Shown: positions 2,671 to 28,691 of the stretch, piece after piece
How positions within the stretch are numbered: position 1 is the stretch's first letter
Layout of the letters: every line of letters starts with the position of its first letter
Assembly: GCA_016867115.1 (NCBI GenBank)
Contig: VGKG01000003.1
Span: forward strand, 64,673-128,672
Reading direction: 5' to 3'
Source of the DNA: Candidatus Omnitrophota bacterium
Lineage (GTDB): Bacteria; Omnitrophota; Gorgyraeia; Gygaellales; Profunditerraquicolaceae
Length of the DNA: 64,000 nucleotides
The notes under the pieces: model-generated
Told to the model about the DNA's origin: nothing
The model's input: the letters and a program-made list of their open reading frames with translations, nothing else
The model's database searches: none
Made by a program: the position numbers and the translations under genes

Positions 2671-4079
2671 GCACAAAACAGACTCTCAACCGGGCTAAAG
2701 GGCCCAAAAATATCACCACCAATGAGCTCCTGGGGCTTGAAGCCAAATATTGCTCCTGGGGGGACACGGTCCATTATGTCAGGACACCTAATATTTTTAA
2801 AAGCGCCGAGGGTTGCTATCTATATGACCAGGAGGGGGTCGAGTTCCTGGACCTGCAGATGTGGTATTCTGCGGCGAACTTCGGCTACCGGAACAGGCGC
2901 CTGAATACTGCCTTAAAGAAGCAGATCGATACCCTGCCGCAGCTGGCCTGCCAATACCTGCATGAAGAGAAGATCCGCCTGGCGGCAAAGCTTTCGCAGA
3001 GGGTGGAGAGGACCTTTGAGGAGAAGGGTAGGGTGCATTTTAATGTCGGAGGCTCAAGCGCCCTGGAAGATTCGCTCAAACTCGTCAGGAATACCTCGGG
3101 CAGAAGCCTGGCCTTTGCCTTTATGGGCGGTTATCACGGCAGGACCCTGGCTGCCTCGGCGATCACCTCGAGTTTCCGCTACCGCGAGCGCTTCGGCCAC
3201 TTCGGCGAAAGGGCGATGTTTATCCCTTATCCCTACTGCTTCCGCTGCCCCTATGAAAAGAAGAGGGACTTCTGCGATTTCTATTGCCTGAAGCAGTTTG
3301 AAAGACTCTTTGAGACCGAATACCATTCGGTGGTGAACAAGAAGACTAATAAGTGCGAGTTCGCCGCCTTTTACGTCGAGCCAGTCCAGGGTACGGGCGG
3401 CTACATCGTGCCGCCGCAGGAGTATTTCGCCGGACTTAAGGAGGTCCTGGACCGCTACGGCATACTTCTGGTGGATGATGAGATCCAGATGGGCTTTTTC
3501 CGCACCGGAAAGTTCTTCTGCTTGGAACATTTTAACGTCACTCCGGATATCATCGTCTTCGGTAAGGCCCTGACTAATGGCCTGAACCCTATTTCCGGAG
3601 TCTGGGCAAAGGAGAAGTTCATTTCCCCTGAAGTTTTTCCGCCCGGCTCTACCCACTCCACCTTCTCGGCAAATCCCCTGGGTACGGCCTGCGGACTTGA
3701 GGTGATGAAACTGATCGAAGAGTCTGATTTTGCCGTCTCTGTCCCCAAAAAGGGACAGTATTTTATCTCCCGGTTAAAACAGCTGCAGAAAAAATACCCG
3801 CAGATAGGGGATGTGGACGGACTGGGGCTGGCTCTGCGCATTGAGATGTGCCAGAAGGACGGCTACACCCCGAACAGGGAGCTGACTGATGCGATAGTAG
3901 AGATCGGCTTAAGTGGGAAGCTGAAAGCAGGAGGTAGGCGGCGCGGCCTCATCCTGGACGTAGGCGGTTATTACAAGAACGTCTTTACCCTGGCGCCCTC
4001 TTTCTATATCACGGAAAAAGAGATAGACCTGGGGGTTGAGCTTTTTGAGGAAGCGCTCTCTAAAGCCCTGAAGAAGTAA
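2667..4079 (+). CDS. PLP-dependent class III aminotransferase
   Basis: 470 aa; GGSSALEDSLKL, DEIQMGFFRTGKFF and FGKALTNG (Lys-PLP) motifs of the AT-III family; 4-nt overlap with the HAD gene. Confidence 0.75.
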   Translation: MSTKQTLNRAKGPKNITTNELLGLEAKYCSWGDTVHYVRTPNIFKSAEGCYLYDQEGVEFLDLQMWYSAANFGYRNRRLNTALKKQIDTLPQLACQYLHEEKIRLAAKLSQRVERTFEEKGRVHFNVGGSSALEDSLKLVRNTSGRSLAFAFMGGYHGRTLAASAITSSFRYRERFGHFGERAMFIPYPYCFRCPYEKKRDFCDFYCLKQFERLFETEYHSVVNKKTNKCEFAAFYVEPVQGTGGYIVPPQEYFAGLKEVLDRYGILLVDDEIQMGFFRTGKFFCLEHFNVTPDIIVFGKALTNGLNPISGVWAKEKFISPEVFPPGSTHSTFSANPLGTACGLEVMKLIEESDFAVSVPKKGQYFISRLKQLQKKYPQIGDVDGLGLALRIEMCQKDGYTPNRELTDAIVEIGLSGKLKAGGRRRGLILDVGGYYKNVFTLAPSFYITEKEIDLGVELFEEALSKALKK

Positions 4080-4158: not shown

Positions 4159-4746
4159 TTAGAACTTTCGCGTGATGCCGGCGACGGCAAAGACAGAGTT
4201 GATACCGCTGTTGGGATGGTCGATACCGGCGTTAGAAAGGTGGCGGAAGCGGCCCTCCAGGGTAAATGCGGTATCCTCCTTGAAGAAATAATGCATGCCT
4301 ACGCCGCCGGTCGAGGCGAAGTTGAACTGGGTGCTCTGTTCGCGGGTATGCAGGGTCATGTAATCAAACCCCGAGCCGACCTTGATGTAGGGCTGGAACT
4401 TCGACGTCTCAGGGAGGATGCCTGCTTTCAGAAAGAAGGAGACCCCGGTCTCAAAATTCGATTCCGGTTCAGAGATACCGGCCATGTAGGGCTCGACCTG
4501 GAACTGCAGAAGCGAACGGGGCGAGAAATTGATCTTCTTGGTCAGGGGCCTTAAGTCGAAGTTCAGGTCCACGATCACCGGATACATATGGTAATCGCCT
4601 TTTACCCGCACCTTACCCCAGCCAAAACCGGTCAGGAAATCGATCGACTGCAGGCTTTTTTCTTCGGCTCTGCACACACCCAGAAAAACAAACGTAACAA
4701 CTACTGCCAGAATGATAACGGTTAGTTTTTTCATAGTAAGCTGCAT
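4159..4746 (-). CDS. Outer-membrane beta-barrel protein, PagL (lipid A 3-O-deacylase)-like
   Basis: Signal peptide MKKLTVIILAVVVTFVFLG, alternating amphipathic strands, C-terminal HLSNAG...F resembling the PagL His/Ser motif and a terminal Phe; start could be Met 4734 instead. Confidence 0.5.
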   Translation of the reverse strand: MQLTMKKLTVIILAVVVTFVFLGVCRAEEKSLQSIDFLTGFGWGKVRVKGDYHMYPVIVDLNFDLRPLTKKINFSPRSLLQFQVEPYMAGISEPESNFETGVSFFLKAGILPETSKFQPYIKVGSGFDYMTLHTREQSTQFNFASTGGVGMHYFFKEDTAFTLEGRFRHLSNAGIDHPNSGINSVFAVAGITRKF

Positions 4747-8014: not shown

Positions 8015-8845
8015 ATGCCTAAAAGAAAGATCATCAAGATCGACGAAGAAAAATGCAACGGCTGCGGCCTCTGTATCCCCAACTGTCCGGAAGGCGCCAT
8101 CCAGGTCATAGACGGTAAGGCGCGCCTGATCAGCGATTTATTTTGTGACGGCCTGGGCGCCTGTATCGGCCATTGCCCGCAGGGCGCGATCGCCATCGAG
8201 GAGCGGGAGGCGGAAAAATACGATGAAAGGAAAGTGATGGAGAATATAGTCAGGCAGGGTGAGAATACAATCATTGCCCACCTTGCGCACCTGAAGGAAC
8301 ACGATGAAGAGGGGTATCTGAAGGAGGCTATGCAATTCTTAAAAGAGAAACATCTCGATATCCCGCTTGAGAGCGGACCTGCTCACCATGTCCACGGACA
8401 TGCCGGATGCCCCGGAGCTAAAATCACGGAGTTTAAGAAAAGGGCCGGGTCAGGGCATGCTCCGGCAGGGCATCAGGAATCAGGGCTTGAGCAGTGGCCG
8501 ATACAGCTTGCGCTTGTGCCGGCATTCGCGCCTTTTTTGAATGATGCTGACCTGCTGATTGCCGCAGACTGCGTGCCTTTTGCTTATGCCTCTTTCCACC
8601 GGGACTTATTAAGAGGAAAGGTTTTGCTGGTGGGCTGTCCTAAGTTCGACGATACGCAACTCTATAGCCAGAAATTAACCCAGATGTTCCAGAATAACCG
8701 CATCAAGTCGGTGACTTACGCGCATATGGAGGTGCCCTGTTGTTCCGGCCTGACACCGCTTATTCAATCAGCCATAACAGCTTCGGGAAAGGAGATCCCT
8801 TTCCGTGAAACGGTGATCAGTATTAAGGGGGAGAGGTCGGAATGA
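8015..8845 (+). CDS. Di-cluster 4Fe-4S ferredoxin-domain protein with a C-terminal Cys/His-rich domain (Hcp-associated)
   Basis: CNGCGLCIPNCP and CDGLGACIGHCP motifs; C-terminal HVHGHAGCPG and PCCSG. Confidence 0.6.
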   Translation: MPKRKIIKIDEEKCNGCGLCIPNCPEGAIQVIDGKARLISDLFCDGLGACIGHCPQGAIAIEEREAEKYDERKVMENIVRQGENTIIAHLAHLKEHDEEGYLKEAMQFLKEKHLDIPLESGPAHHVHGHAGCPGAKITEFKKRAGSGHAPAGHQESGLEQWPIQLALVPAFAPFLNDADLLIAADCVPFAYASFHRDLLRGKVLLVGCPKFDDTQLYSQKLTQMFQNNRIKSVTYAHMEVPCCSGLTPLIQSAITASGKEIPFRETVISIKGERSE

Positions 8846-9069
8846 TCCGGAAGTGCCCGGGACAGGATGACCGTAAAATCAACGCCGAAGAGATCAGGTG
8901 CCCTGATTGCGGTTACGAGGCGGAGATCTTCTCGGATGAATTAAAGGTAAAATGCCCCGGATGCAAAGGCCTTATCTGCAGGGCGTTATTGCCGTCCTGC
9001 ATTGACTGGTGTAAACACGCCCGGGAGTGCCTGGGCGGGGTAAGATGGAGGAAGATAAGAGGGAGGTAA
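8842..9069 (+). CDS. Small zinc-ribbon/Cys-rich protein
   Basis: CPDCG...CPGCKG double CxxC; ATGA overlap with the upstream gene. Confidence 0.35.
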   Translation: MIRKCPGQDDRKINAEEIRCPDCGYEAEIFSDELKVKCPGCKGLICRALLPSCIDWCKHARECLGGVRWRKIRGR

Positions 9070-18011: not shown

Positions 18012-19199
18012 ATGTCAGCGATTAAAATATTACCGGATATCTACTCTGTGGGAGCGGCAGACTGGAATGTGCGCACCTTTCACGGCCACACCTACAGCAC
18101 AAAGAGAGGCACGACTTATAACGCCTATCTGATTGTGGACGAAAAAATCGCGTTGGTGGATACCGTTTACGGCCCATTTGCCAAGGAGCTGATCGAGAAT
18201 ATCCGCGAGGTTATTCCGGTTGAGAAAATAGATTATGTGATCGCTAACCACGTTGAGACTGACCACTCCGGAGCCCTGCCTGAAGTGATGAAGCTCTGCC
18301 CCAAGGCCAAGGTGATCGGCACGCAGAAATGTAAAGAGGGGCTCTTTAAGCACTATTACGGAAACTGGGATTTTCAGGTGGTCAAGACCGGGGATAAGAT
18401 CAGCCTTGGCAAAAGGGAGCTGGCCTTTATCGAAGCGCCGATGATCCACTGGCCGGACAGCATGTTCACTTACTGCCCGCAGGAAGAGCTGCTCATGCCT
18501 AATGACGCCTTTGGCCAGCATATCGCTACCAGCGAACGTTTTGCCGATGAAGTCGACCCCTGTGCGCTCTGGGATGAGGCCTCTAAATACTATGCCAATA
18601 TCCTCTGGCCGCTGGGTGCGGTCATTGCCAGAAAGATCGATGAAGTCCTTAAGATGAATATCCCCATAAAATCAATCGCTCCCAGCCACGGTGTGATCTG
18701 GAGAAAAGAGCCCTTAAAAATAGTCCAGGCCTATGCTGCCTGGGCAAGAAATGAAACTAAGCCCAAAGTAGTAGTGGCCTATGAATCCATGTGGGGCGCA
18801 ACTCAGATGATGGCCAAAAAAATAGTTGAAGGGATCATCGATGCCGGTATCAGCGTCAAGCTCTATGACGTAGCCGCTAGCGACCGCACCGAGATCATCA
18901 ACGATATGCTGGAGGCAAAAGGTTTTCTCTTCGGCTCATCCACCCATGATAATGACATGCTTCCTAATTTTGCCGGATTCCTTGAGTTTGTCAGGGGCCT
19001 GGCGCCGAAAAACAGGATTGCTTCCGTATTTGGATCCTATGGCTGGGCAGGAGGGGCAGCGAAAGAGATCGAAACTGTGCTTAAAGAAACGGGAATAGAG
19101 CTGGCCATGCCTTCTTTAACCGTAAAATATGTTCCCGATGAAGCGGAAACCAAGCGCTGCTATGATTTTGGCCGGGACTTTGCCGCCAGGATAAAATAA
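18012..19199 (+). CDS. fprA: Flavodiiron protein (FprA / rubredoxin:oxygen oxidoreductase)
   Basis: Metallo-beta-lactamase-like diiron domain (HVETDHSG) followed by a flavodoxin domain (SMWGAT). Confidence 0.85.
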   Translation: MSAIKILPDIYSVGAADWNVRTFHGHTYSTKRGTTYNAYLIVDEKIALVDTVYGPFAKELIENIREVIPVEKIDYVIANHVETDHSGALPEVMKLCPKAKVIGTQKCKEGLFKHYYGNWDFQVVKTGDKISLGKRELAFIEAPMIHWPDSMFTYCPQEELLMPNDAFGQHIATSERFADEVDPCALWDEASKYYANILWPLGAVIARKIDEVLKMNIPIKSIAPSHGVIWRKEPLKIVQAYAAWARNETKPKVVVAYESMWGATQMMAKKIVEGIIDAGISVKLYDVAASDRTEIINDMLEAKGFLFGSSTHDNDMLPNFAGFLEFVRGLAPKNRIASVFGSYGWAGGAAKEIETVLKETGIELAMPSLTVKYVPDEAETKRCYDFGRDFAARIK

Positions 19200-19202
19200 A
19201 GG

Positions 19203-19664
19203 ATGAAAAAGATCCCGGAAAATATCCTGCGTTTTTTTCAGAACCAGGGTTTTGTCATAGTCTCTACTATAGATAAGTCAGGCCTGGTGCACAGTGCCTG
19301 CAAGGGCATAGTAAAGATCGAAGGCACGGGAAGAATATACCTGCTCGACCTTTATCGGGCCAGGACCTATATAAATCTAAAAAATAATCCCGCCATCAGC
19401 GTCACTGCCGTTGATGAGCATAAGTTCAGCGGCTGGTGCCTTAAGGGCAGGGCGAAGATACTCAACGCCGGTGAAGTGAGCGGGGAATTGATCAGGGAGT
19501 GGGAGGCAAAGATCTCCGGAAGGATCGCCTACCGGCTCCTTAAGAATATCCGCGAGGAAAAAGGGCACCCCCGGCATCCTGAGTCTCAGCTGCCCAAGCC
19601 GCAGTATATGATTCTGATGGAAGCCGAAGAGATCGTGGACCTTACCCCGCAGCACCTTAAGTAA
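19203..19664 (+). CDS. Pyridoxamine 5'-phosphate oxidase-like FMN-binding protein
   Basis: Split-barrel PNPOx-like fold (GFVIVSTIDKSGL...); 153 aa. Confidence 0.5.
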   Translation: MKKIPENILRFFQNQGFVIVSTIDKSGLVHSACKGIVKIEGTGRIYLLDLYRARTYINLKNNPAISVTAVDEHKFSGWCLKGRAKILNAGEVSGELIREWEAKISGRIAYRLLKNIREEKGHPRHPESQLPKPQYMILMEAEEIVDLTPQHLK

Positions 19665-19685
19665 AGAAATAAGACAGGAGGAGGA

Positions 19686-20162
19686 ATGGGCAATATATTT
19701 GCTGGCAGTGAAGTCGTAGAGATCGGCATACAGATCGAAAAGAACGGCAGGGATTTTTATAACGCCCTCGTCACGCAATCCAAAGCCCCTGAGGCAGCGG
19801 AGCTTTTCAAGTTCTTGGCTAAGGAAGAAGAGAAGCACATTGAGATGTTCCGCAAAATCCTGGAAACTGCCACAAAGTACGAACCGCAAGGGTTAGATTC
19901 CGACGAATATTATGCCTATATGCAATCTCTTGCAAGCGATTATGTGTTTACGCAGAAGGATAAAGGTGCAGAGATCGCTAAGCAGATAAAAAGCGACCAC
20001 GAAGCCGTAGAAATGGGTATCGGCTTTGAGAAGGACTCCATTATCTTTTACGAAGGAATAAAAAAAGCGGTCCCGGATTACGACCAGAAGATCGTGGATG
20101 CCCTGATCGCCCAGGAGCAGGAGCATTTAAGGAGATTGATCGACTTAAGAAGCGCGCTCTAA
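19686..20162 (+). CDS. Ferritin-like/rubrerythrin-like diiron protein with no rubredoxin domain
   Basis: Two E-x2-H half-sites (EEEKHIE, EQEHLRR) in a four-helix-bundle-sized protein. Confidence 0.55.
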   Translation: MGNIFAGSEVVEIGIQIEKNGRDFYNALVTQSKAPEAAELFKFLAKEEEKHIEMFRKILETATKYEPQGLDSDEYYAYMQSLASDYVFTQKDKGAEIAKQIKSDHEAVEMGIGFEKDSIIFYEGIKKAVPDYDQKIVDALIAQEQEHLRRLIDLRSAL

Positions 20163-20180
20163 CTGAAGAGAAAGGATAAA

Positions 20181-20417
20181 ATGGCTAAAAACGTAAGGAT
20201 TTACAGCACGCCTACCTGCCCCTGGTGCATCCGCACCAAACAGTTCTTAAAGGACAATAATGTGGTTTTTGAGGATGTAGATGTCTCCGGTGACCAGCAG
20301 GCCGCAGAAGAGATGGTCCGCAAATCCGGCCAGATGGGCGTGCCGGTCCTGGATATCGAGGGCGAGATCATCGTCGGGTTTGATAAGGATAGGATCAAAA
20401 AAGCACTGGGAATATAA
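20181..20417 (+). CDS. Glutaredoxin-like protein (CPWC)
   Basis: 78 aa, YSTPTCPWC active site. Confidence 0.7.
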   Translation: MAKNVRIYSTPTCPWCIRTKQFLKDNNVVFEDVDVSGDQQAAEEMVRKSGQMGVPVLDIEGEIIVGFDKDRIKKALGI

Positions 20418-20419
20418 AT

Positions 20420-21325
20420 ATGTATGACCTGATTATCATAGGCGCCGGCCCCGCCGGGATTACTGCCGGAGTCTATGCTGCGCGCAAAAACATGGACCTT
20501 CTGGTGGTTACCGGGGATATCGGCGGCCAGGCCGCGGTCAGCGGAGACATTGAAAATTATACCGGTTATCAGTTCATTACCGGGCCGGAGCTTGCGGCGA
20601 AGTTCGAGGAGCACATCCATAATTACGCGGTTACGGTAAAAGAGAATGAGTCTGTAAGGGAATTACGCAAGTCCGGGGATAAGGTCATCGTGGTTTCGGA
20701 TAAGGAAACCTATGAGGCCCGCTCGGTGATCATTGCCTCGGGAAAAAGATCAAGGGAGCTGAACGTTCCCGGAGAAAAGGAGTTTAAGAATAAGGGCCTG
20801 ACCTATTGCGCTACCTGCGATGCTCCGCTCTTTAGGGGGAAGGATGTCGCGGTGATCGGAGGAGGCAATTCCGCGCTCGATGCCGTCCTGCAGCTGACGA
20901 AGATCGCCCGCAGTATCTATCTGATCAACATTAATCCCGCTCTTGGCGGTGATGCGGTGATGCGCCAGAAGGTCTTAGGAAGCCCTAATGCCAAGGTGTT
21001 GAATAATGCGCAAACGACGGCAATCACCGGCGATAGTATGGTAAGCGGGATCAGAGTCAAATGCGATGGCCGCGAAGAAGTGCTTCCGGTTCAGGGAATA
21101 TTTGTGGAGATCGGTCTGGTCCCGAATTCTGATTTCGCTAAAGACATTGAGAAGAATGATTTGGGCGAAATAAAGATAAATTGCCGCAATGAAACGAATA
21201 TCCCGGGGATCTTTGCTGCCGGAGATGTCACCGATGTCCCGGAGAAGCAGATCATTATCGCAGCAGGTGAAGGCTCAAAGGCCTGCCTTAGCGCCTTCCG
21301 GTACTTAGCGGAACATAGATTCTAA
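20420..21325 (+). CDS. trxB: Thioredoxin reductase-like FAD-dependent disulfide oxidoreductase
   Basis: IIGAGPAG, CATCDAP redox-active disulfide, GGGNSA and AAGDV motifs. Confidence 0.8.
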   Translation: MYDLIIIGAGPAGITAGVYAARKNMDLLVVTGDIGGQAAVSGDIENYTGYQFITGPELAAKFEEHIHNYAVTVKENESVRELRKSGDKVIVVSDKETYEARSVIIASGKRSRELNVPGEKEFKNKGLTYCATCDAPLFRGKDVAVIGGGNSALDAVLQLTKIARSIYLININPALGGDAVMRQKVLGSPNAKVLNNAQTTAITGDSMVSGIRVKCDGREEVLPVQGIFVEIGLVPNSDFAKDIEKNDLGEIKINCRNETNIPGIFAAGDVTDVPEKQIIIAAGEGSKACLSAFRYLAEHRF

Positions 21326-21331
21326 ATTTCT

Positions 21332-22285
21332 ATGGTAAATCTAAAACTGATAAAACAAAAGATTCTCAGGGCAAAGCGTATCGCAGTGGCCAGCCACATC
21401 AACCCTGACGGCGATTCGCTGGGTTCGCTCCTCTCCCTGGGGTTGGCCTTAAAAAAGCTGGGCAAGCGCGTCTATCTCCTGAGCCCTGACGGCGTACCTA
21501 AAAGATACCGCCGGCTCCCCGGGGCAGGAGGGATTATCCGTAAATTAAATAAGCCGGTGGACCTGGCGGTCGCAGTTGACTGCAGCAACCGCGAGATCCT
21601 GGGTAGATCCTGGGGGACCTTTCAGAAGGCAAAGGATATTTTAGAGATTGACCACCACGAATTCCGGCGGCCGTTCGGAAATATCCGCCTCGTGGATACC
21701 CGGGCTGCAGCAGTGGGCGAATTGATCTACCCCCTCTTAAAGGACCTAAAGATAAACATCGATACAGCCATAGCGCAAAACCTCCTGACCTCAGTGGTGG
21801 TTGAGACCGATTCCTTCCGGCTACCGAACGTCCGGCCCTTTACCTTTGAGATCTGCCACGATTTAATGAAAAAGAAAGTGGATTTCTATAAGCTGGTGGA
21901 TATGGTCTTTTGGTCAAAAACTAAGGAGTCCACGATTCTTTCCGGTATTTGTATGGCCAGATGCAAGTTCCTGAAGAACGGCCGGCTGGCCTGGTCTATT
22001 GTGCGCCAGAAAGATTTCCGCAACCAGAAGGGTAAAGACGAAGACGTAGACCCGGTAGCCGATGAGATGCGTTCGATCAAGGGCGTGAGGATCGCGGTAT
22101 TTTTCCGGGAAAAGGATAACTCGACATTACGGGTGAGCCTGCGCTCAAAGGGCAAGATTAATGTCGCGGGGATAGCCGAGCATTTCGGGGGAGGCGGCCA
22201 CTTTGATGTGGCGGGCTGCTCCATAGCGAATAAACCGAAAGCAATGAATAAGCTCCTTGCCATGGCCAAAACCTTATTGAAATAG
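21332..22285 (+). CDS. nrnA: DHH/DHHA1 phosphoesterase, NrnA-like nanoRNase/pAp phosphatase
   Basis: HINPDGDSLGS, DHH and C-terminal GGGGH motifs. Confidence 0.75.
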   Translation: MVNLKLIKQKILRAKRIAVASHINPDGDSLGSLLSLGLALKKLGKRVYLLSPDGVPKRYRRLPGAGGIIRKLNKPVDLAVAVDCSNREILGRSWGTFQKAKDILEIDHHEFRRPFGNIRLVDTRAAAVGELIYPLLKDLKINIDTAIAQNLLTSVVVETDSFRLPNVRPFTFEICHDLMKKKVDFYKLVDMVFWSKTKESTILSGICMARCKFLKNGRLAWSIVRQKDFRNQKGKDEDVDPVADEMRSIKGVRIAVFFREKDNSTLRVSLRSKGKINVAGIAEHFGGGGHFDVAGCSIANKPKAMNKLLAMAKTLLK

Positions 22286-22687
22286 ATGATCCAAAAGACA
22301 AAGTTCACTGAACTAAAAAAAGTTTTTAGTACTTTGCACGGGCCGAAAGGCTGCCTCTGGGATAAAGAGCAGACGCATAAGAGCCTTATCCCCTATCTTA
22401 AGGAAGAAGCGGATGAGTTTATCGCTACTGTCAGGAAGGGCACTTACGCGCACATGCGCGATGAGCTGGGAGACCTCCTGCTGCAGGTGATGTTCCATTC
22501 CCAGATCGCGAAGAAAGACGGAAAGTTTGACGTAGAAGACGTGATCGATACCCTGATCAAGAAACTGAAACGCCGCCATCCCCATGTCTTTGGCAAGGTA
22601 AAGGTAAGGTCCAGCCGCGAGATCATCGCTAACTGGCACAAAATTAAAGCGCAGGAGAAGAGAGGTAAAAGGCATGCTAAAGTATAA
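22286..22687 (+). CDS. mazG: MazG-family nucleoside triphosphate pyrophosphohydrolase
   Basis: EEADEF and ELGDLLLQV EE-x2-E motifs. Confidence 0.75.
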   Translation: MIQKTKFTELKKVFSTLHGPKGCLWDKEQTHKSLIPYLKEEADEFIATVRKGTYAHMRDELGDLLLQVMFHSQIAKKDGKFDVEDVIDTLIKKLKRRHPHVFGKVKVRSSREIIANWHKIKAQEKRGKRHAKV

Positions 22688-22964
22688 AAAGATAAGAGTA
22701 GGAAAAAATTATATTGAGGCTTTTTCCGTTTCGTTACAGAGTAAAACATTCATCCTGCTTAAGGGAAGAAAGGGCTATGTAATGTGCGGCTACATTAATC
22801 TAAAAGCTGCCGAAAAATTTAAAGACGCAGCCGTAAAGATCACGGGCGTCTCTACTATTGAAGAGGCCCTGAAAGCAAAAGTCCATTCCTGTACTTCCTG
22901 TGCGAGAAAATTAGGCATATCTAAAGGACAATCGATCCGGGAGGCACTCAAGAAAATTTACTAA
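22674..22964 (+). CDS. DUF1805 (YunC-like) small protein
   Basis: 96 aa, GYVMCGYIN motif; 14-nt overlap with mazG. Confidence 0.4.
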   Translation: MLKYKKIRVGKNYIEAFSVSLQSKTFILLKGRKGYVMCGYINLKAAEKFKDAAVKITGVSTIEEALKAKVHSCTSCARKLGISKGQSIREALKKIY

Positions 22965-22971
22965 ATAATAC

Positions 22972-23001
22972 TTGATATACCCCCAGGGGGTATGTTATAA
23001 T
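22972..23001 (+). promoter_or_regulatory. Promoter with CsoR-type operator ATACCCCCAGGGGGTAT placed between the -35 and -10 elements
   Basis: TTGATA at 22972-22977, 17-bp perfect GC-core palindrome at 22977-22993, TATAAT at 22996-23001; matches the known CsoR operator architecture. Confidence 0.7.
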
Positions 23002-23020
23002 TATTGTACAGAGGTGATGA

Positions 23021-23302
23021 GTGGCTAAGTATCCGGATCATACAGATAATTTAGTATCTCTAAGAAGGATAGAAGGGCAAGTCCGCGGCATTCAGAAGAT
23101 GATTGAGAATAAAGGATATTGCGTAGATATACTTAATCAGATACACGCGGTTATTTATGCCCTCGCCAGAATCGAGGATAAAATTCTCCAGAAGCATTTT
23201 GAGGGATGTGTAGCCGAAGCTGTCCGCGGCGGTTCGGCAAATGATAAAAGAAAAAAGCTGGAAGAGATACTTCGGCTAATCCATCAATTCAGGAAGGTCT
23301 AA
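23021..23302 (+). CDS. csoR: CsoR/RcnR-family metal-sensing repressor (Cu-type C-H-C ligand set)
   Basis: GQVRGIQKMIE...GYCVDILNQIHAV...HFEGC pattern; GTG start with AGAGGTGA RBS. Confidence 0.75.
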   Translation: MAKYPDHTDNLVSLRRIEGQVRGIQKMIENKGYCVDILNQIHAVIYALARIEDKILQKHFEGCVAEAVRGGSANDKRKKLEEILRLIHQFRKV

Positions 23303-23314
23303 AAGGAGGTACAC

Positions 23315-23503
23315 ATGAAAAAATCTCTTATTTCTTTGTTTATCGCCACACTCTTACTTAATGCCGGATTGTCTTTGGCAGCCGCAGGCTCTTGCTGCGC
23401 AAAAGACAAGTGCGCAACTGCCAAAGGTACATGCTGCATAAAAGGAGATTGTAAGAGTTCCGATAAGAGTTGTTGTAGTAATGGACAGTGTAAATGTCCG
23501 TAG
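23315..23503 (+). CDS. Secreted Cys-rich mini-protein (13 Cys in a mature peptide of about 38 aa), candidate periplasmic copper-binding peptide
   Basis: Signal peptide MKKSLISLFIATLLLNAGLSLAAAG followed by CCAKDKCATAKGTCCIKGDCKSSDKSCCSNGQCKCP; AAGGAGG RBS; 12 nt downstream of csoR. Confidence 0.55.
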   Translation: MKKSLISLFIATLLLNAGLSLAAAGSCCAKDKCATAKGTCCIKGDCKSSDKSCCSNGQCKCP

Positions 23504-23529
23504 GATCTTAGCAGGAAAATAGGTCAATC

Positions 23530-23690
23530 ATAGGCGGGGAGGTCGTAATACGGCCTGAGAGTCTCCGTTTAGACGGGGTTACCCGATGAACCTGAACTGG
23601 ATAATGCCAGCGGAGGGAAGGAGCGTGATGGATAATAGACCCGATGCATCTGGCAAAGGGTCTTTTTATTTCTGCGGGCAGCCAGAAAAC
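23530..23690 (+). promoter_or_regulatory. TPP riboswitch (THI element) with terminator-type expression platform
   Basis: CUGAGA ... ACCUGA ... GGAUAAUGCCAGCG ... AGGGAA THI-box hallmarks at 23557-23618; GACCC/GGGTC hairpin plus TTTTTATTT at 23640-23672; GGAGGG RBS before the Thi4 ATG. Confidence 0.75.
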
Positions 23691-23704: not shown

Positions 23705-24517
23705 ATGTTTAGCAAAATAACGGAAGCACAGATCAGCAGGGCGATCGTAGGAGAGTTTACCAGGTGGTTTGATGATTATATTACTTCCGATGTCATCATC
23801 GTCGGCGCCGGGCCCAGCGGCCTTATGGCAGGGCGCGACCTGGCTAATGCAGGGATCAAGACCCTGATCATCGAAAGCAACAATTATATCGGCGGAGGTT
23901 TTTGGGTCGGCGGTTATTTCATGAATACCCTGACCTTCAGGTCTCCGGCAGAGGATATCCTGGATGAACTGAAGATACCTCATAAGAGGATAGAAGACGG
24001 GTTGTCTGTCGCGGACGGCCCTTCTGCCTGCTCAAAGCTCATCTCCGCCACATGCGATTCAGGGGCAAAGATCCTGAACCTCACTAAGTTCGATGACGTG
24101 GTCCTGCGCAATCAGCGGGTTGAGGGGGCGGTGGTCAACTGGGCCCCGGTCTCGGCGTTACCCCGGCAGATCACCTGCGTAGACCCGATCGCCCTGGAAG
24201 CAAAGGTAGTGGTTGATGCTACAGGCCATGATGCCTGGGTAGCCCGGAGCCTCGAGAAGAGAGGGTTATTGAAATTGCAAAGTTTCGGCCCTATGGATGT
24301 CGTGCTTTCAGAAGGGCTGGTGGTAGAAAAGAGCGGTGAGATCTTCCCGGGGCTCTTTGCTATCGGTATGGCAGTATCTTCTGTCTACGGGATACCGCGC
24401 ATGGGGCCTACTTTTGCCGGGATGCTTTTTTCAGGAAGAAAAGCTGCTCAGGAAATAATCAAGCTATTCTCCTGCACAGGGAGCTCTACTTGTAAAGAGC
24501 CTGCCGCAGTAGTCTAA
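23705..24517 (+). CDS. thi4: Thiazole synthase Thi4 family, second paralogue, riboswitch-controlled
   Basis: IIVGAGPSGL, GGGFWVGG, VVDATGHDAWV and PRMGPTFAGMLFSG motifs. Confidence 0.85.
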   Translation: MFSKITEAQISRAIVGEFTRWFDDYITSDVIIVGAGPSGLMAGRDLANAGIKTLIIESNNYIGGGFWVGGYFMNTLTFRSPAEDILDELKIPHKRIEDGLSVADGPSACSKLISATCDSGAKILNLTKFDDVVLRNQRVEGAVVNWAPVSALPRQITCVDPIALEAKVVVDATGHDAWVARSLEKRGLLKLQSFGPMDVVLSEGLVVEKSGEIFPGLFAIGMAVSSVYGIPRMGPTFAGMLFSGRKAAQEIIKLFSCTGSSTCKEPAAVV

Positions 24518-24548
24518 AAACTACCAGTATAAAAATTGCAAAAAAAGA

Positions 24549-24595
24549 TTGACAAATCTTATTTCTATAGTAAACTCTACTTTGTTAATAGAGTT
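24549..24595 (+). promoter_or_regulatory. Promoter (TTGACA) with inverted repeat AACTCTA-N8-TAGAGTT over the -10/start-site region; candidate Rrf2 autoregulatory operator
   Basis: TTGACA at 24549-24554; 7-bp arms at 24574-24580 and 24589-24595. Confidence 0.45.
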
Positions 24596-24617
24596 AATAG
24601 ACAAAAGGAAAAGCAAA

Positions 24618-25052
24618 ATGAGAATTACCTATCGGGGCGATTACGCTTTAAAGGCAGTTCTGGATCTGGCGTTGCATCAGGGGACTTTAGTGACGACGCA
24701 TGATTTAGCCAGGCGCACAGACGCTCCCCTTAAATTCTTGGAACAGGTTTTACTGGATTTAAAGAGGGGCGGTTTTGTAGAGAGCCGGCGGGGTAAGGTC
24801 GGCGGTTATCTTCTGGCAAGAGATCCTTCGCAGGTCAGATTAGGCGAGGTCATCAGGTTCATTGACGGCCCTATTGAGCCGATTGAATGCGTAGATAAAA
24901 AATACGACGGCTGCCGCGACTTGTATAAGTGCATCTTTAGAGGCATATGGCAGGAAGTGGCGGAGTCGACCTCCAGAATCATAGATAACATCACTTTTAA
25001 AGATCTGGCAGAAAGGGTGAAGAGGGGCCAGGGTCTGGTCTATTCGATTTAG
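24618..25052 (+). CDS. Rrf2-family regulator (CymR/IscR-like) heading the sulfur-assimilation operon
   Basis: YALKAVLDLA...VTTHDLARR wHTH; C-x6-C-x5-C (CVDKKYDGCRDLYKC); trimmed to ATG 24618. Confidence 0.75.
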   Translation: MRITYRGDYALKAVLDLALHQGTLVTTHDLARRTDAPLKFLEQVLLDLKRGGFVESRRGKVGGYLLARDPSQVRLGEVIRFIDGPIEPIECVDKKYDGCRDLYKCIFRGIWQEVAESTSRIIDNITFKDLAERVKRGQGLVYSI

Positions 25053-25070
25053 GAAGGAGATCATGAATAA

Positions 25071-25994
25071 ATGCCAAAAATTGCCAAAGACATTACGGCA
25101 CTGATTGGTAATACTCCTTTGGTCTACATAAACAGGCTATCTCAAGGCTGCGGGGCCAGGGTGGCGGCGAAGTTAGAATTATTCAACCCCTGCTCTTCGG
25201 TTAAAGACAGGATAGGCCTGAGTATGATCGAACAGGCAGAGAGGGAAGGCAAGATAAAGCCGGATACGGTCATTGTCGAGCCGACTTCGGGCAATACCGG
25301 TATAGCCCTGGCTTTTGTCGCTGCTGTCAGAGGGTATAAACTGGTCTTGATTATGCCGGAGACGATGAGCCTTGAACGCAGAAAATTATTGGCCGCCTTT
25401 GGCGCAGAGATTATCCTTACTTCCGGCAGTGAGGGGATGAGCGGCGCGGTAAAAAAAGCGGAAGAGCTGGTAAAGAGCAATAAGCACTATTTTATGCCGC
25501 AGCAGTTTAAGAATCCGGCTAACCCCGAGATTCACCGTCGGACTACTGCCTTAGAGATCTGGGAGGATACCGAAGGCAAGATAGATATTTTAGTTGCAGG
25601 CGTCGGGACCGGTGGTACAATTACAGGTATAGCCGAAGTGATCAGGGAAAAGAAGCCTTCATTTCGCGCGATTGCGGTCGAACCGGAGGAATCACCGGTT
25701 CTCTCCGGCGGAAAGCCCGGGCCGCACAAGATCCAGGGCATCGGCGCAGGTTTTGTGCCAGATGTCCTGAACCGGGAGATAATTGATGAGATCATCCAGG
25801 TCTCTAATGACGATGCCGCTGCCACCGCCCGCAGGCTGGTAAAAGAAGAGGGGATCCTTGCCGGGATCTCTTCCGGGGCAGCTGTCTTTGCCGCCCTGAA
25901 AGTCGGCCGGAGAAGCGAGAATAAGGATAAGCTGATTGTGGTCATCCTGCCCGATACCGGCGAGCGCTACTTAAGTACAGGGCTTTTTGTTTAA
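25071..25994 (+). CDS. cysK: Cysteine synthase A (O-acetylserine sulfhydrylase)
   Basis: IGNTPLV, SVKDR (PLP Lys), [10 protein letters not shown] and GTGGT motifs. Confidence 0.85.
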
Positions 25995-26012
25995 CCCTAA
26001 GGAGGAATAATC

Positions 26013-26234
26013 ATGAGAGAAAAAGTCGAGAAGGCGATAGAAAAGGTGCGGCCCATGCTTCAGGCAGACGGAGGGGATGTTGAGCTCATCGATGTGACCT
26101 CAGAAGGAGTTGTGAAGCTGAAATTACAGGGAAGCTGTGGCTGCTGCCCGATGAGCCAGATCACCCTTAAGACGGCAATAGAGAAGATCATCAAGCAGGA
26201 AGTCCCCGAAATAAAAGAGGTCATCGCGATTTAA
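26013..26234 (+). CDS. NifU-like (Nfu) Fe-S cluster scaffold domain protein
   Basis: 73 aa, GSCGCCPMS CxxC motif. Confidence 0.7.
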   Translation: MREKVEKAIEKVRPMLQADGGDVELIDVTSEGVVKLKLQGSCGCCPMSQITLKTAIEKIIKQEVPEIKEVIAI

Positions 26235-26252
26235 GGAGAGCGAGTCAGAGAG

Positions 26253-27458
26253 ATGAGAACGATAAAAGAGATAAACGCAAAGATCAAAAAGGGCGACGTC
26301 GTAGTCGTCACCGCGGAAGAAGTCATAGATCTGGTGGCTAAAAAGGGCGTAAAAAAGGCGGCCCAGGAAGTGGATGTGGTCACCACCGGTACCTTTGGCC
26401 CGATGTGTTCATCCGGCGCCTATTTTAATATCGGACATTCAAAACCGAGGATTAAACTCGGCGGCGGGACCTGCACATTAAACGGAGTCCCGGTTTATAC
26501 CGGTTTTGCGGCCGTGGATATATACCTCGGCGCAACCGCGCTTGCGGATGATGACCCGCGCAATAAGATCTATCCGGGAGAGTTCAAATACGGCGGAGGT
26601 CATGTGATCCAGGAGCTGGTCGCGGGAAAGAACGCGCACCTTGAGGCGAGCGCCTACGGCACGGATTGCTATCCGCGTAAGAAACTTTCCACCCATATTA
26701 ATATCAAGGATATTAACGAAGCAGTCCTCTTTAATATCCGCAATTGTTACCAGAATTATAATATTGCGGTGAACCTTTCGGATAAGCCGATCTATACTTA
26801 CATGGGTATGCTTAAGCCGAATCTCGGTAATGCCAATTACTGTTCTGCGGGACAGCTCTCGCCGCTCTTGAAAGACCCCTACTATAAGACCATAGGCGTA
26901 GGGACAAAGATATTCCTGGGCGGCGGCATCGGCTATGTCTCCTGGCACGGCACCCAGCACAACCCGTCGGTGAAACGCAAGGAGAATGGTATCCCGCAGG
27001 CTCCGGCCGGGACCCTGGCGGTCATCGGCGACCTGAAACAGATGAAACCGGAGTGGTTGGTGGGGGTGAGCATGCTTGGTTATGGCGTAACGCTGAATGT
27101 AGGGATAGGTGTACCCATACCGATACTTGATGAAGAGATACTTAAATACACGGCTGCCAGGGACGAAGAGATCTACGCGCAGGTAGTGGATTACAGCGAG
27201 GCGTATCCTCAGGCGGTACCGGGCAGCTTAGCAGAGGCAAATTATGCCCAGTTAAAATCCGGAAAGATCACGGTAAAGGGAAAGGAAATCCCTACCGGAA
27301 ATCTCTCCAGTTACTCCAAGGCGGTGGAGATCGCCGAGCAGTTAAAGGCATGGATCAAGAAGGGGGATTTTACCCTGACAGAGGCGGTGGCGGCATTGCC
27401 GGGTGTAGAGTCAGGGTATACCTTTAAGCCTTTAAAAGAGAGCCCGTCAATCAGCTAG
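26253..27458 (+). CDS. DUF39 / COG1900 homocysteine-biosynthesis protein (MA1821-type sulfide-incorporating enzyme)
   Basis: 401 aa; typical size and architecture; directly followed by an NIL-domain ferredoxin, as in the methanogen MA1821-MA1822 pair. Confidence 0.65.
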   Translation: MRTIKEINAKIKKGDVVVVTAEEVIDLVAKKGVKKAAQEVDVVTTGTFGPMCSSGAYFNIGHSKPRIKLGGGTCTLNGVPVYTGFAAVDIYLGATALADDDPRNKIYPGEFKYGGGHVIQELVAGKNAHLEASAYGTDCYPRKKLSTHINIKDINEAVLFNIRNCYQNYNIAVNLSDKPIYTYMGMLKPNLGNANYCSAGQLSPLLKDPYYKTIGVGTKIFLGGGIGYVSWHGTQHNPSVKRKENGIPQAPAGTLAVIGDLKQMKPEWLVGVSMLGYGVTLNVGIGVPIPILDEEILKYTAARDEEIYAQVVDYSEAYPQAVPGSLAEANYAQLKSGKITVKGKEIPTGNLSSYSKAVEIAEQLKAWIKKGDFTLTEAVAALPGVESGYTFKPLKESPSIS

Positions 27459-27477
27459 GCAGCGGGAGGAAAAGAAT

Positions 27478-27885
27478 ATGGTTTCCAAAAAGATAGTCTT
27501 GCATTTTCCGTCAAAGCTGGTGGATCAGCCCATCGTTTATAAACTGGTCAAAGATTTTGACCTGCAGTTTAATATTCTGAAGGCCTCGGTTACCTCGGGG
27601 GAAGAGGGCCTGATGGTCCTGGAATTGACCGGCAAAAAAGAGAACTTTGATCAGGGCATCGAATATCTTAAGTCCTGCGGGGTAAAGATCCAGCCTTTAA
27701 GCAAGGACGTGGTGCGCGATGAAGTCAAATGCACGCATTGCGGAGTCTGTATCCCGATCTGTCCTACGGGTGCGCTGATCGTCGACCCTAAGACGCGTAA
27801 AGTAATCTTCCATAACGATAAATGCATCGCCTGCGAACTCTGTGTTCCCATCTGCCCGCCGCGCGCCATGGAAGTGAAGTTCTAG
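27478..27885 (+). CDS. NIL-domain plus 2x[4Fe-4S] ferredoxin (MA1822-type partner of DUF39)
   Basis: N-terminal NIL domain; CTHCGVCIPICP and CIACELCVPICP motifs. Confidence 0.7.
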   Translation: MVSKKIVLHFPSKLVDQPIVYKLVKDFDLQFNILKASVTSGEEGLMVLELTGKKENFDQGIEYLKSCGVKIQPLSKDVVRDEVKCTHCGVCIPICPTGALIVDPKTRKVIFHNDKCIACELCVPICPPRAMEVKF

Positions 27886-27893
27886 TATTGCAC

Positions 27894-28691
27894 GTGGATA
27901 AATTACCCAGACTTAAAAATATAATCAGGCGTTATGGCTCCTGCGTCATCGCTTTTTCCGGCGGCGTAGACAGCACGTTACTTTTAAAAGTGGCTTCCCT
28001 GGTGTTACCTAAAGATAAAATCCTTGCAGTTACTGCCACCTCTGCTACATACCCAAAAGAAGAATTATTTTTTTCTAAAACCCAGGCTAAGGAGATCGGC
28101 GTAAGGCATAAGATCATCGCGACTGCGGAAGTTAAAGATAAAAGATTTACTTCCAACCCCCTTGACCGTTGTTATATATGCAAAAAAGAGCTTTTTAATA
28201 AGCTGAAGATTATCGCGAGGAATTTTAGATACGATTTTGTACTCGATGCCACCAATGCCTCTGATAAGGCAGATTTTCGCCCCGGAAATAAGGCGCTTCA
28301 GGAATTAAAAATACGCTCACCGCTTAAGGAGGCAGGTTTGTCTAAGGATGATATCCGCGCGCTAAGTAGGCGATTTGGTTTGGTTACCTGGGATAAACCG
28401 AGTTTGGCTTGCCTGGCCTCTCGCATTCCTTACGGCACAAAAATTACGCCGTCTTTACTTAGCCGCATTAACCAGGCAGAGGAATATTTAAGAAGTTTTG
28501 GTTTCAAACAGGCGAGATTGCGGCATTATAACAACCTCTGCCGGATTGAGGTTTTGAAAAGGGATATCCCGCGGCTTCTTGCCCGGCGCAATCAGATAGT
28601 CGACAAGCTAAAAAGTTTGGGTTATAATTATGTTACTGTGGACCTTGAAGGATACCGTACCGGCAGCATGAATGAGGTGATCGGTCGATGA
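27894..28691 (+). CDS. PP-loop ATP pyrophosphatase, LarE-like/TIGR00268 family, candidate sulfur transferase
   Basis: SGGVDS PP-loop; conserved CYICK Cys; GTG start chosen at 27894 with low certainty. Confidence 0.6.
   Translation: MDKLPRLKNIIRRYGSCVIAFSGGVDSTLLLKVASLVLPKDKILAVTATSATYPKEELFFSKTQAKEIGVRHKIIATAEVKDKRFTSNPLDRCYICKKELFNKLKIIARNFRYDFVLDATNASDKADFRPGNKALQELKIRSPLKEAGLSKDDIRALSRRFGLVTWDKPSLACLASRIPYGTKITPSLLSRINQAEEYLRSFGFKQARLRHYNNLCRIEVLKRDIPRLLARRNQIVDKLKSLGYNYVTVDLEGYRTGSMNEVIGR

Follow-up and report, generated by a model that had tools for sequence, protein, structure and literature searches.

A CsoR repressor gene paired with a gene for a metallothionein-like, putatively exported mini-protein in uncultured Omnitrophota

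What does a copper-type repressor control when no transporter gene follows it? This question is raised by a two-gene locus at positions 22,972 to 23,503 of a 64,000-nucleotide stretch of DNA (hereafter, the window) from a Candidatus Omnitrophota bacterium (contig VGKG01000003.1), in which csoR is followed by a short open reading frame (ORF) for a cysteine-rich peptide. Our analyses indicated that the repressor and its operator form an ordinary CsoR module of textbook quality, and that the new part is the family of the cargo peptide, an undescribed family of exported metallothionein-like mini-proteins in uncultured Omnitrophota. The elements of the locus, in window coordinates, are the following.

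22972 to 22977, forward strand: -35 hexamer TTGATA of the csoR promoter (promoter scan 11/12, 18-nt spacer; TTGACA at the same place in orthologous loci)
22977 to 22993, no strand: CsoR operator, a perfect 8+1+8 palindrome ATACCCCCAGGGGGTAT, read as A-TAC-(X9)-GTA-T (fit to the CsoR box and positional conservation)
22993 to 23001, forward strand: extended -10 element TGtTATAAT (TG before the second hexamer of the promoter scan; -10 hexamer at 22996-23001)
23021 to 23302, forward strand: csoR, encoding a 93-aa repressor of the CsoR/RcnR family, GTG start (PF02583, E = 1.1e-24)
23303 to 23309, forward strand: Shine-Dalgarno sequence AAGGAGG of the peptide gene, inside the 12-nt gap (read from the sequence)
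23315 to 23386, forward strand: predicted signal peptide, residues 1-24 of a 62-aa ORF (tripartite pattern and an AlphaFold2 (AF2) helix over residues 3-24; putative cleavage site)
23387 to 23503, stop codon included, forward strand: mature Cys-rich peptide of about 38 aa with 10 Cys (ORF translation and family alignments)

The regulator belongs to the family to which the original prediction had assigned it. It matched PF02583 over profile positions 3-77 of 78 with 87.1 bits (cut-off, 22.8), and the closest solved structures were the CsoR of Geobacillus (4M1P, 1.6e-18) and then that of S. lividans (4ADZ, 7.6e-15), both of which outscored the structures of CstR, M. tuberculosis CsoR, and InrS in the PDB comparison. 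Under the W-X-Y-Z rule for this superfamily, x-C-H-C denotes a Cu(I) sensor, H-C-H-H denotes RcnR, P-C-H-x denotes FrmR, and x-C-N-C denotes CstR (PMC11672702). The window CsoR has the Cu(I)-type x-C-H-C fingerprint, with C34, H59, and C63 as X, Y, and Z; Y33-C34 aligns to the Y-C of the copper site in 4M1P and 4ADZ, and H59-x3-C63 to its H-x3-C. The Cu(I) ligands of M. tuberculosis CsoR are Cys36, His61, and Cys65, with Y35 and the helix-3 residue E81 in the second shell. The corresponding Tyr and Glu are present here as Y33 and E82, the latter at the position of the Glu in the proteins from S. lividans and Geobacillus. Furthermore, none of the 36 CsoR orthologues compared, which come from related loci, deviates at Y33, C34, Q40, H59, C63, or E82. 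An RcnR or FrmR identity, which the original prediction had named as refuting, is disfavoured, since the H-C-H-H and P-C-H-x patterns are absent. They would call for His3 or Pro2 near the N-terminus and for His or a non-ligand at Z; here Z is Cys63, and residue 2 is an Ala that varies among orthologues. The NCBIfam models of FrmR and RcnR reached only 29 bits (cut-off, 133) and 25 bits (cut-off, 138), respectively. A persulfide sensor of the CstR type was also disfavoured, given the invariant His59 at Y and the weaker matches to 7MQ1/7MQ2 (3e-10, versus 1.6e-18 for CsoR).

The promoter and operator complete this picture. The csoR promoter is of the sigma-70 type, and ATACCCCCAGGGGGTAT occupies the spacer between its -35 and -10 elements, as had been predicted for the 17-bp perfect palindrome. 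This sequence has a single match in the window, even with three mismatches allowed, and a looser scan of the window for TACC-N5-11-GGTA found no further G/C-tract site. Symmetry by itself is not significant, as the window holds three perfect palindromes with 8-bp arms versus 1.6 in shuffled sequences; the significance of the palindrome derives instead from its match to the CsoR box, its position inside the promoter, and its conservation across orthologous loci. With respect to sequence, a TAC-X9-GTA dyad is common to the sites of S. lividans, S. aureus, L. monocytogenes, and B. subtilis and is needed for binding, and the streptomycete type-2 CsoR consensus is ATATACCCCTNAGGGGTATAT (Tan et al., PMC3902906). 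The window operator, A-TAC-CCCCAGGGG-GTA-T, fits the dyad exactly and also fits the type-2 consensus ATATACCCCTNAGGGGTATAT. With respect to position and conservation, Omnitrophota-type orthologous loci carry a CsoR-type box directly after TTGACA that runs into the -10 element, either as a perfect palindrome ATACCCCC-N-GGGGGTAT or as ATACCATA-G6-TATGGTAT. The pattern ATACC-N5-12-GGTAT was present in 112 of the 176 loci fetched and, in those inspected, lay just upstream of the csoR gene or operon. S. lividans CsoR contacts DNA through Q81 and R57, and the Gln is necessary for DNA binding (PMC3902906); the equivalents here are the invariant Q40 and R16, which is conservatively kept (R in 29 and K in 7 of the 36 orthologues). 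A G/C-tract operator with the TAC-X9-GTA dyad overlapping the regulator's own promoter is what characterizes a Cu(I)-responsive CsoR, and the window CsoR and operator are almost certainly a matched repressor-operator pair. Copper is probably the signal.

One residue bears on a different metal. His7 (23039-23041) lies within a P-[DST]-H motif and is invariant in 36 of 36 orthologues (L004-L017, L084-L106, and L176). If it served as a fourth ligand, the regulator could be an InrS-like H-C-H-C sensor and the operon could answer nickel or cobalt, and InrS (5FMN) is indeed among the PDB matches (E = 9e-9). We consider this very improbable. His7 stands 9 residues before RIEG, whereas the W ligand of RcnR and InrS stands about 14 residues before it (a register derived from alignment offsets and the sequences of these proteins); the CsoR structures far outscore InrS; the genes that neighbour the orthologues are of the Cus type and include no Ni/Co exporters; and a thiolate-only peptide would be a poor Ni/Co ligand on general grounds of coordination chemistry.

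What, then, does the copper-type repressor control? The peptide ORF (62 aa, 23315-23503) follows csoR after a 12-nt gap, AAGGAGGTACAC, which contains the ribosome-binding site AAGGAGG, and both the spacing and the strong ribosome-binding site had been correctly foreseen. The translation contains 10 Cys (residues 27, 28, 33, 40, 41, 46, 53, 54, 59, and 61) rather than the 13 first claimed. Of the motifs described at that time, CC is present, and neither C-x3-C nor C-x2-C occurs; the real spacing is CC-x4-C-x6-CC-x4-C-x6-CC-x4-C-x-C, that is, three CC-x4-C units and a closing C-x-C. The N-terminus consists of an n-region (MKK), an h-region (LISLFIATLLL), and a c-region (NAGLSLAAA) with a predicted signal peptidase I (SPase I) site, AAA|G. 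Sec export and cleavage at this site, and thereby the 38-aa mature form, were assigned by rule, in agreement with the signal peptide and mature part of about 38 aa proposed originally. Tat export was rejected because the MKK n-region lacks a twin arginine.

The composition is that of a metallothionein. The peptide ORF is the richest in Cys among the 351 window ORFs of at least 40 aa; Cys makes up 28% of its Cys-rich core (first Cys to C-terminus, 36 aa), and the predicted 38-aa mature peptide is free of F, W, Y, and H. Low mass, about 30% Cys, CC and CxC motifs, and few aromatic residues or His are thus found together, and the composition of the peptide family is of the classical metallothionein type. 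No homology to known metallothionein families (SmtA/BmtA and other Pfam or PDB metallothioneins) was detectable in Pfam, NCBIfam, or the PDB profile search, and five family members gave no Pfam or NCBIfam match at E ≤ 1. Csp1/Csp3 four-helix bundles (DUF326) were likewise rejected, given the lack of a Pfam match, a mature part of about 38 aa without predicted helices, and the missing twin arginine; the earlier statement that the peptide is smaller than, and unrelated to, these storage proteins holds. The second most Cys-rich ORF of the window (8842-9069, forward strand) encodes 75 aa with 9 Cys in CPxC/CxxC pairs; it is zinc-ribbon-like and unrelated to the peptide family.

The csoR-peptide pair is not unique to this window. 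As the original prediction had proposed, we looked for the same pair elsewhere and found it in no fewer than 10 further, distinct loci of the Omnitrophota type. A Cys-rich ORF lies right after csoR in L004, L008/L095, L084, L085, L086, L087, L092, L094, L101, and L176, and L085 carries the same peptide as L164/L165, also a csoR-peptide pair. The CsoRs of those loci are 62-77% identical, and their metagenome-assembled genomes (MAGs) are labelled Omnitrophota, with some TPA bins labelled Planctomycetales. In L092, L094, and L095, which have short-type peptides with 9-11 Cys, a conserved membrane protein of about 122 aa is encoded just downstream (3600-3971, 3564-3932, and 4275-4643, respectively); it has a C-terminal CxxC...CxxC tail that resembles a zinc ribbon.

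At the protein level, an exact look-up of the window peptide returned no record, and a word-indexed search with this peptide alone returned no match. A phmmer search with it against 1.84 billion representatives gave 14 matches of 65-79 aa, and a profile search returned 19 clusters (54-79 aa), each with a Sec-type signal peptide. Where the clusters were named, the name was 'hypothetical protein', and one came from a Candidatus Omnitrophica MAG. A back-translated scan of metagenome contigs with a 3-sequence peptide alignment produced 599 pattern matches and no confirmed one, because the patterns fell in the signal peptide. In the alignments A2 and A4, nine Cys columns are invariant and three nearly so, while the residues between them vary freely. 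A typical member has three CC-x4-C-x-C units and a C-terminal GC-x2-C-x-C module, with 14-15 Cys in total. All members have 1-3 basic residues, a hydrophobic run of 11-13 residues, a helix breaker (N/Q-G), and then A-x-A, placed 1-5 residues before the first Cys. A lipoprotein was rejected on this basis, since the residues before the first Cys keep no lipobox (FADGC, AKTGC, EKSKDC) and A-x-A is always present. The close pair L086/L087 differs by 12 synonymous versus 4 nonsynonymous codons, which indicates that the peptide gene is under strong purifying selection. These features suggest that the peptide is very probably a real, exported product. On the public contigs L001 (4867-5268), L002, and L003, whose DNA is identical, the gene caller left the 62-aa ORF uncalled, although callers recovered homologues of the peptide from other samples; annotation underrepresents the small Cys-rich genes of this family.

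The family data also bear on whether the cysteines hold metal or disulfides. A disulfide-rich secreted mini-protein with a non-metal role (antimicrobial, toxin, or surface/structural) that merely shares the csoR operon would agree with the small size, the secretion, and the regular repeat of the Cys-rich peptide. AF2 placed short beta-strands in the Cys region of the window peptide (predicted local distance difference test (pLDDT), about 72), and the top match of the PDB profile search was EGF-like, although at E = 0.76 this single match is meaningless; no metallothionein was matched either. The Cys counts speak otherwise. The 33 members compared have between 6 and 16 Cys, usually an odd number (15), and a variable, mostly odd number of Cys argues against a fixed disulfide scaffold. 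In the Cys-rich part of these members, Cys accounts for 31%, Lys for 14%, Gly for 12%, and Ala for 9%; Phe and Trp are absent (0%), and Tyr (0.1%) and His (0.6%) are rare. This part thus offers no aromatic or hydrophobic core residues. No confident fold was obtained: the window peptide was modelled with a pLDDT of 63, as an N-terminal helix (residues 3-24) without helices in the mature part, and the typical member P0016 with a pLDDT of 56. Foldseek with the peptide model against the PDB returned only noise. No immunity, maturation, or export genes lie nearby, and a bacteriocin or other ribosomally synthesized and post-translationally modified peptide was rejected for the same reason. Given, in addition, a host with the gene content of an anaerobe and a conserved, presumed co-transcription with a metal sensor, we regard a disulfide mini-protein as quite unlikely. 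Metal binding through thiolates, as suggested by the composition, appears reasonably likely.

Selection on the peptide matters for a further alternative, namely that the small ORF encodes a nascent exported regulatory sensor like CutF, or that it has no functional product. CutF is a small exported peptide with a Cys motif that exerts translational control over a downstream copper gene (PMC9973294). At the window locus, a thiamine pyrophosphate (TPP) riboswitch (23525-23635, 59.9 bits) starts 22 nt after the peptide stop codon and is followed by thi4, with neither a terminator nor a promoter predicted between the stop codon and the riboswitch, and gene callers skipped the ORF on the identical contigs. 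Against this, the family lacks a conserved C-terminal stalling motif (the peptides end in KCP, KCS, CGK, CQC, or CAK), the downstream gene is not conserved, some relatives have a terminator after the peptide gene, and the nine invariant Cys columns attest to strong purifying selection. A CutF-like sensor was rejected on these grounds, and we hold this alternative, including a non-functional ORF, to be extremely improbable.

Because the riboswitch and thi4 follow immediately, the unit of interest is csoR plus the peptide gene. The expression platform of the riboswitch resembles a terminator (GACCC...GGGTC and then a T-run near 23640-23670), and thi4 may be partly transcribed from the copper-regulated promoter by read-through. 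A functional tie to thiamine synthesis was rejected. The recurrent adjacency of thi4 is judged to reflect lineage synteny, gene order varies, and relatives have a terminator and a promoter in between: a terminator follows the peptide gene in L168 and L174, and TATAAT lies right behind the stop codon in L164. The cluster upstream of csoR (18012-22964) is related to oxygen and oxidative stress and encodes PNPOx-like, rubrerythrin, glutaredoxin, thioredoxin-reductase-like, DHH/DHHA1, MazG, and DUF1805 proteins (domains called on the identical contig L001), and ORF 18012-19199 looks flavodiiron-like by analogy with L164. The downstream cluster (23705-28691) is one of sulfide assimilation, with thi4, an Rrf2 regulator, and, by synteny with L164, cysK, NifU-like, and HcyBio genes; it also holds an ORF judged by eye to be ferredoxin-like. 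The synteny of the oxidative-stress cluster and of thi4-Rrf2-cysK-NifU-HcyBio recurs throughout the loci with this thi4 adjacency, among them L164, L172, L174, and L176. Taken together, the predicted gene content indicates an anaerobe.

The genes that orthologous csoR genes precede provide a further view of the signal. CsoR orthologues of about 64% identity, with the box ATATACCCCCGGGGGGTATAT, precede OEP, then CusB with two heavy-metal-binding domains (HMBD), and then a YHS protein, a set that is a predicted Cu/Ag efflux system. Other orthologues precede a secreted beta-barrel of about 337 aa with a weak Porin_O_P match (23 bits), located at 5293-6309 in L005, with homologues in L006, L009, L013, L016, and L088-L106; in L005, two ORFs without assignment and then a MacB-type ABC exporter come after it. 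This barrel may be a copper-regulated outer-membrane channel. In this clade, the product of the gene directly behind csoR thus nearly always belongs to the envelope, and of the three types of cargo, one has a clear relation to copper. The porin-like and TolC-like genes behind csoR in other clade members also imply that Omnitrophota-type hosts have an outer membrane and a periplasm.

Some members of the peptide family occur in another setting. In L166/L167, L168/L169, L170/L171, L174/L175, and probably the contig of P0026, there is no csoR, and the peptide gene lies behind the gene of a secreted Cys/His protein. This protein has 100-120 aa, an H/C-rich motif (e.g., HQDCSCCK..KCH), and a C-terminal ..DIFHPP[KR]., and it matches nothing in Pfam or NCBIfam. 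Its gene was located as follows.

L166, 3656 to 3955: secreted Cys/His protein gene, uncalled
L168, 3644 to 3958: secreted Cys/His protein gene, uncalled
L170, 3641 to 3952: secreted Cys/His protein gene
L174, 2591 to 2953: secreted Cys/His protein gene

In L172 (1030-2570) and L173 (1221-2761), a 106-aa MerR-type regulator with a C-terminal CWEIKKC..C motif is followed by thi4, the peptide gene 34 nt later, and Rrf2-cysK-NifU. DsbD_TM and permeases of the SBF and ArsP_1 types are further neighbours of the csoR-less members, and the peptides may thus bind thiophilic metals or sulfur species more widely.

These neighbours suggest a further alternative, in which the exported, thiol-rich peptide binds something other than copper, such as Zn, Cd, Hg, As, or persulfide/polysulfide, and the regulator may sense that species. 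Besides ArsP_1, the SBF/ACR3-like permeases, and DsbD_TM, it would agree with the adjacent sulfide-assimilation genes (thi4, Rrf2, cysK, NifU, and HcyBio), with persulfide sensors having been reported as the largest group of the CsoR superfamily (PMC11672702), and with the control of Sox genes by a CsoR-like protein (PMC10318464). We nevertheless judge it unlikely. The Y position is an invariant His, as in Cu sensors, where CstR has Asn or another residue; the top matches of the regulator are validated Cu sensors; its orthologues precede CusC/CusB-HMBD/YHS genes; and the adjacency of thi4 looks like lineage synteny, with a terminator between the peptide gene and thi4 in relatives.

For a copper-responsive operon, the following course of events can be proposed. 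In the absence of copper, judging from what is known of the family, CsoR tetramers would sit on TAC-X9-GTA in the -35/-10 spacer and block RNA polymerase. Rising cytoplasmic Cu(I) would bind C34 and H59'/C63', whereupon CsoR would leave the DNA and the csoR-peptide mRNA would be made; co-transcription of the two genes is suggested by the 12-nt gap, the lack of an internal promoter or terminator, and their conserved adjacency. The 62-aa precursor would be exported unfolded by Sec and cut after AAA. The released peptide, about 38 aa long and rich in lysine, would bring its 10 thiols into the periplasm or further out. In an anaerobe, its thiols would remain reduced and could hold Cu(I) in thiolate clusters, so that the peptide, considering its composition and context, may be a small extracytoplasmic metallothionein-like buffer or hand-over point for copper.

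Several observations weigh against this reading. Neither copA nor any other copper gene lies within the window, where a motif search found no DKTGT signature of P-type ATPases and no GMxCxxC motif of copper chaperones; the operon itself encodes no transporter or ATPase, as originally stated. His7 could touch the metal site as a fourth ligand or serve an allosteric tail, which makes the coordination and the metal specificity less certain. The signal-peptide assignment rests on rules, that is, on the pattern of n-, h-, and c-regions. The window copy is short, with 4-5 fewer Cys than usual: in two C-x-C pairs the second Cys is missing, and so is the C-terminal GC-x2-C-x-C module. Finally, the family also occurs without csoR and without a CsoR box, and its function is therefore not bound to CsoR. 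Of the copper-inducible, metallothionein-like sponge that had been envisaged, the composition, export signal, and Cu-type regulator have stood, and copper induction and copper binding are suggested by context; the peptide family is not linked exclusively to CsoR. On balance, we lean slightly towards the entire chain, an autoregulated two-gene copper-stress operon that would be derepressed by Cu(I) and encode a Sec-exported metallothionein-like Cu(I) trap.

As a CsoR module, the locus closely resembles those of Geobacillus thermodenitrificans, B. subtilis, and S. lividans, with the same Pfam family, x-C-H-C ligands, and Tyr/Glu second shell, a TAC-X9-GTA site with G/C tracts that overlaps the promoter, and csoR as the first gene of its own operon. 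It differs in its cargo, a single exported peptide in place of copZ/copA, and in the regulator, as the window clade has the invariant N-terminal P-[DST]-H and replaces the first Arg of the RLXR DNA-contact motif by Ser or Ala (S-L-R-R). The nearest parallel in logic is found in M. tuberculosis, where RicR, a paralogue of CsoR, has the metallothionein MymT under its control (PMC3944814). Both systems combine a CsoR-family copper repressor and a palindromic box with a Cys-rich mini-protein that annotation had missed (MymT binds Cu and has about 5 kDa). RicR is also the best NCBIfam model for the window regulator, yet with 72 bits against a cut-off of 175. MymT is cytoplasmic, lacks a signal peptide, and has its own RicR-regulated promoter, whereas the window peptide has a Sec signal, bears no sequence similarity to MymT, and is encoded behind the regulator gene.

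As a metallothionein, the family shares with yeast Cup1, mammalian metallothioneins, and SmtA/BmtA a small size, about 30% Cys, CC and C-x-C motifs, a content rich in Lys, Gly, Ser, Ala, and Thr, essentially no aromatic residues, and the lack of a confident apo fold. Unlike these cytosolic proteins, it is exported and has its own repeat, CC-x4-C-x-C three times. The strategy proposed for the window peptide is that of Csp1, an extracytoplasmic, thiolate-based, high-capacity, and copper-induced Cu(I) binder; Csp1 (about 120 aa) leaves through Tat as a pre-folded four-helix bundle and assembles into tetramers, unlike the family peptides of about 38-50 aa with their Sec-type signal. Sequestering or buffering copper outside the cytoplasm within a copper-stress regulon, as proposed here, is also the strategy of CopL, CusF, and PcoE/SilE. 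These proteins bind one ion or a few and rely on Met, His, or Trp ligands or on a defined fold, whereas the window peptide is a candidate for an all-thiolate cluster.

In the open-access literature, we found no description of such a peptide family, of exported or periplasmic bacterial metallothioneins, or of copper biology in Omnitrophota. Described bacterial metallothioneins and copper stores (e.g., SmtA, MymT, and Csp3) are cytosolic, with the exception of the pre-folded, Tat-exported Csp1 bundle, and reviews list them accordingly (PMC7558416, PMC11672702). We tentatively propose that these peptides could be the first family of naturally Sec-exported prokaryotic metallothioneins, a Cu(I) buffer outside the cytoplasm that uses thiolates only and is confined to anaerobic, uncultured bacteria of the Omnitrophota type. 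It would be wired either to CsoR or to the secreted ..IFHPP[KR]. Cys/His protein, and together these would form an unrecognised envelope copper-handling system. The locus further illustrates that gene callers and domain libraries miss genes of this kind, as the ORF is uncalled on identical contigs and has no family model, and the peptide is short enough for synthesis, which makes the idea directly testable. If the proposal is true, a Sec-exported, unfolded, thiolate-only mini-peptide would represent a different and very cheap way of extracytoplasmic copper buffering, a strategy workable only with a reducing periplasm, and it would provide a first entry point to the metal homeostasis of Omnitrophota, a widespread phylum for which MAGs supply almost all knowledge.

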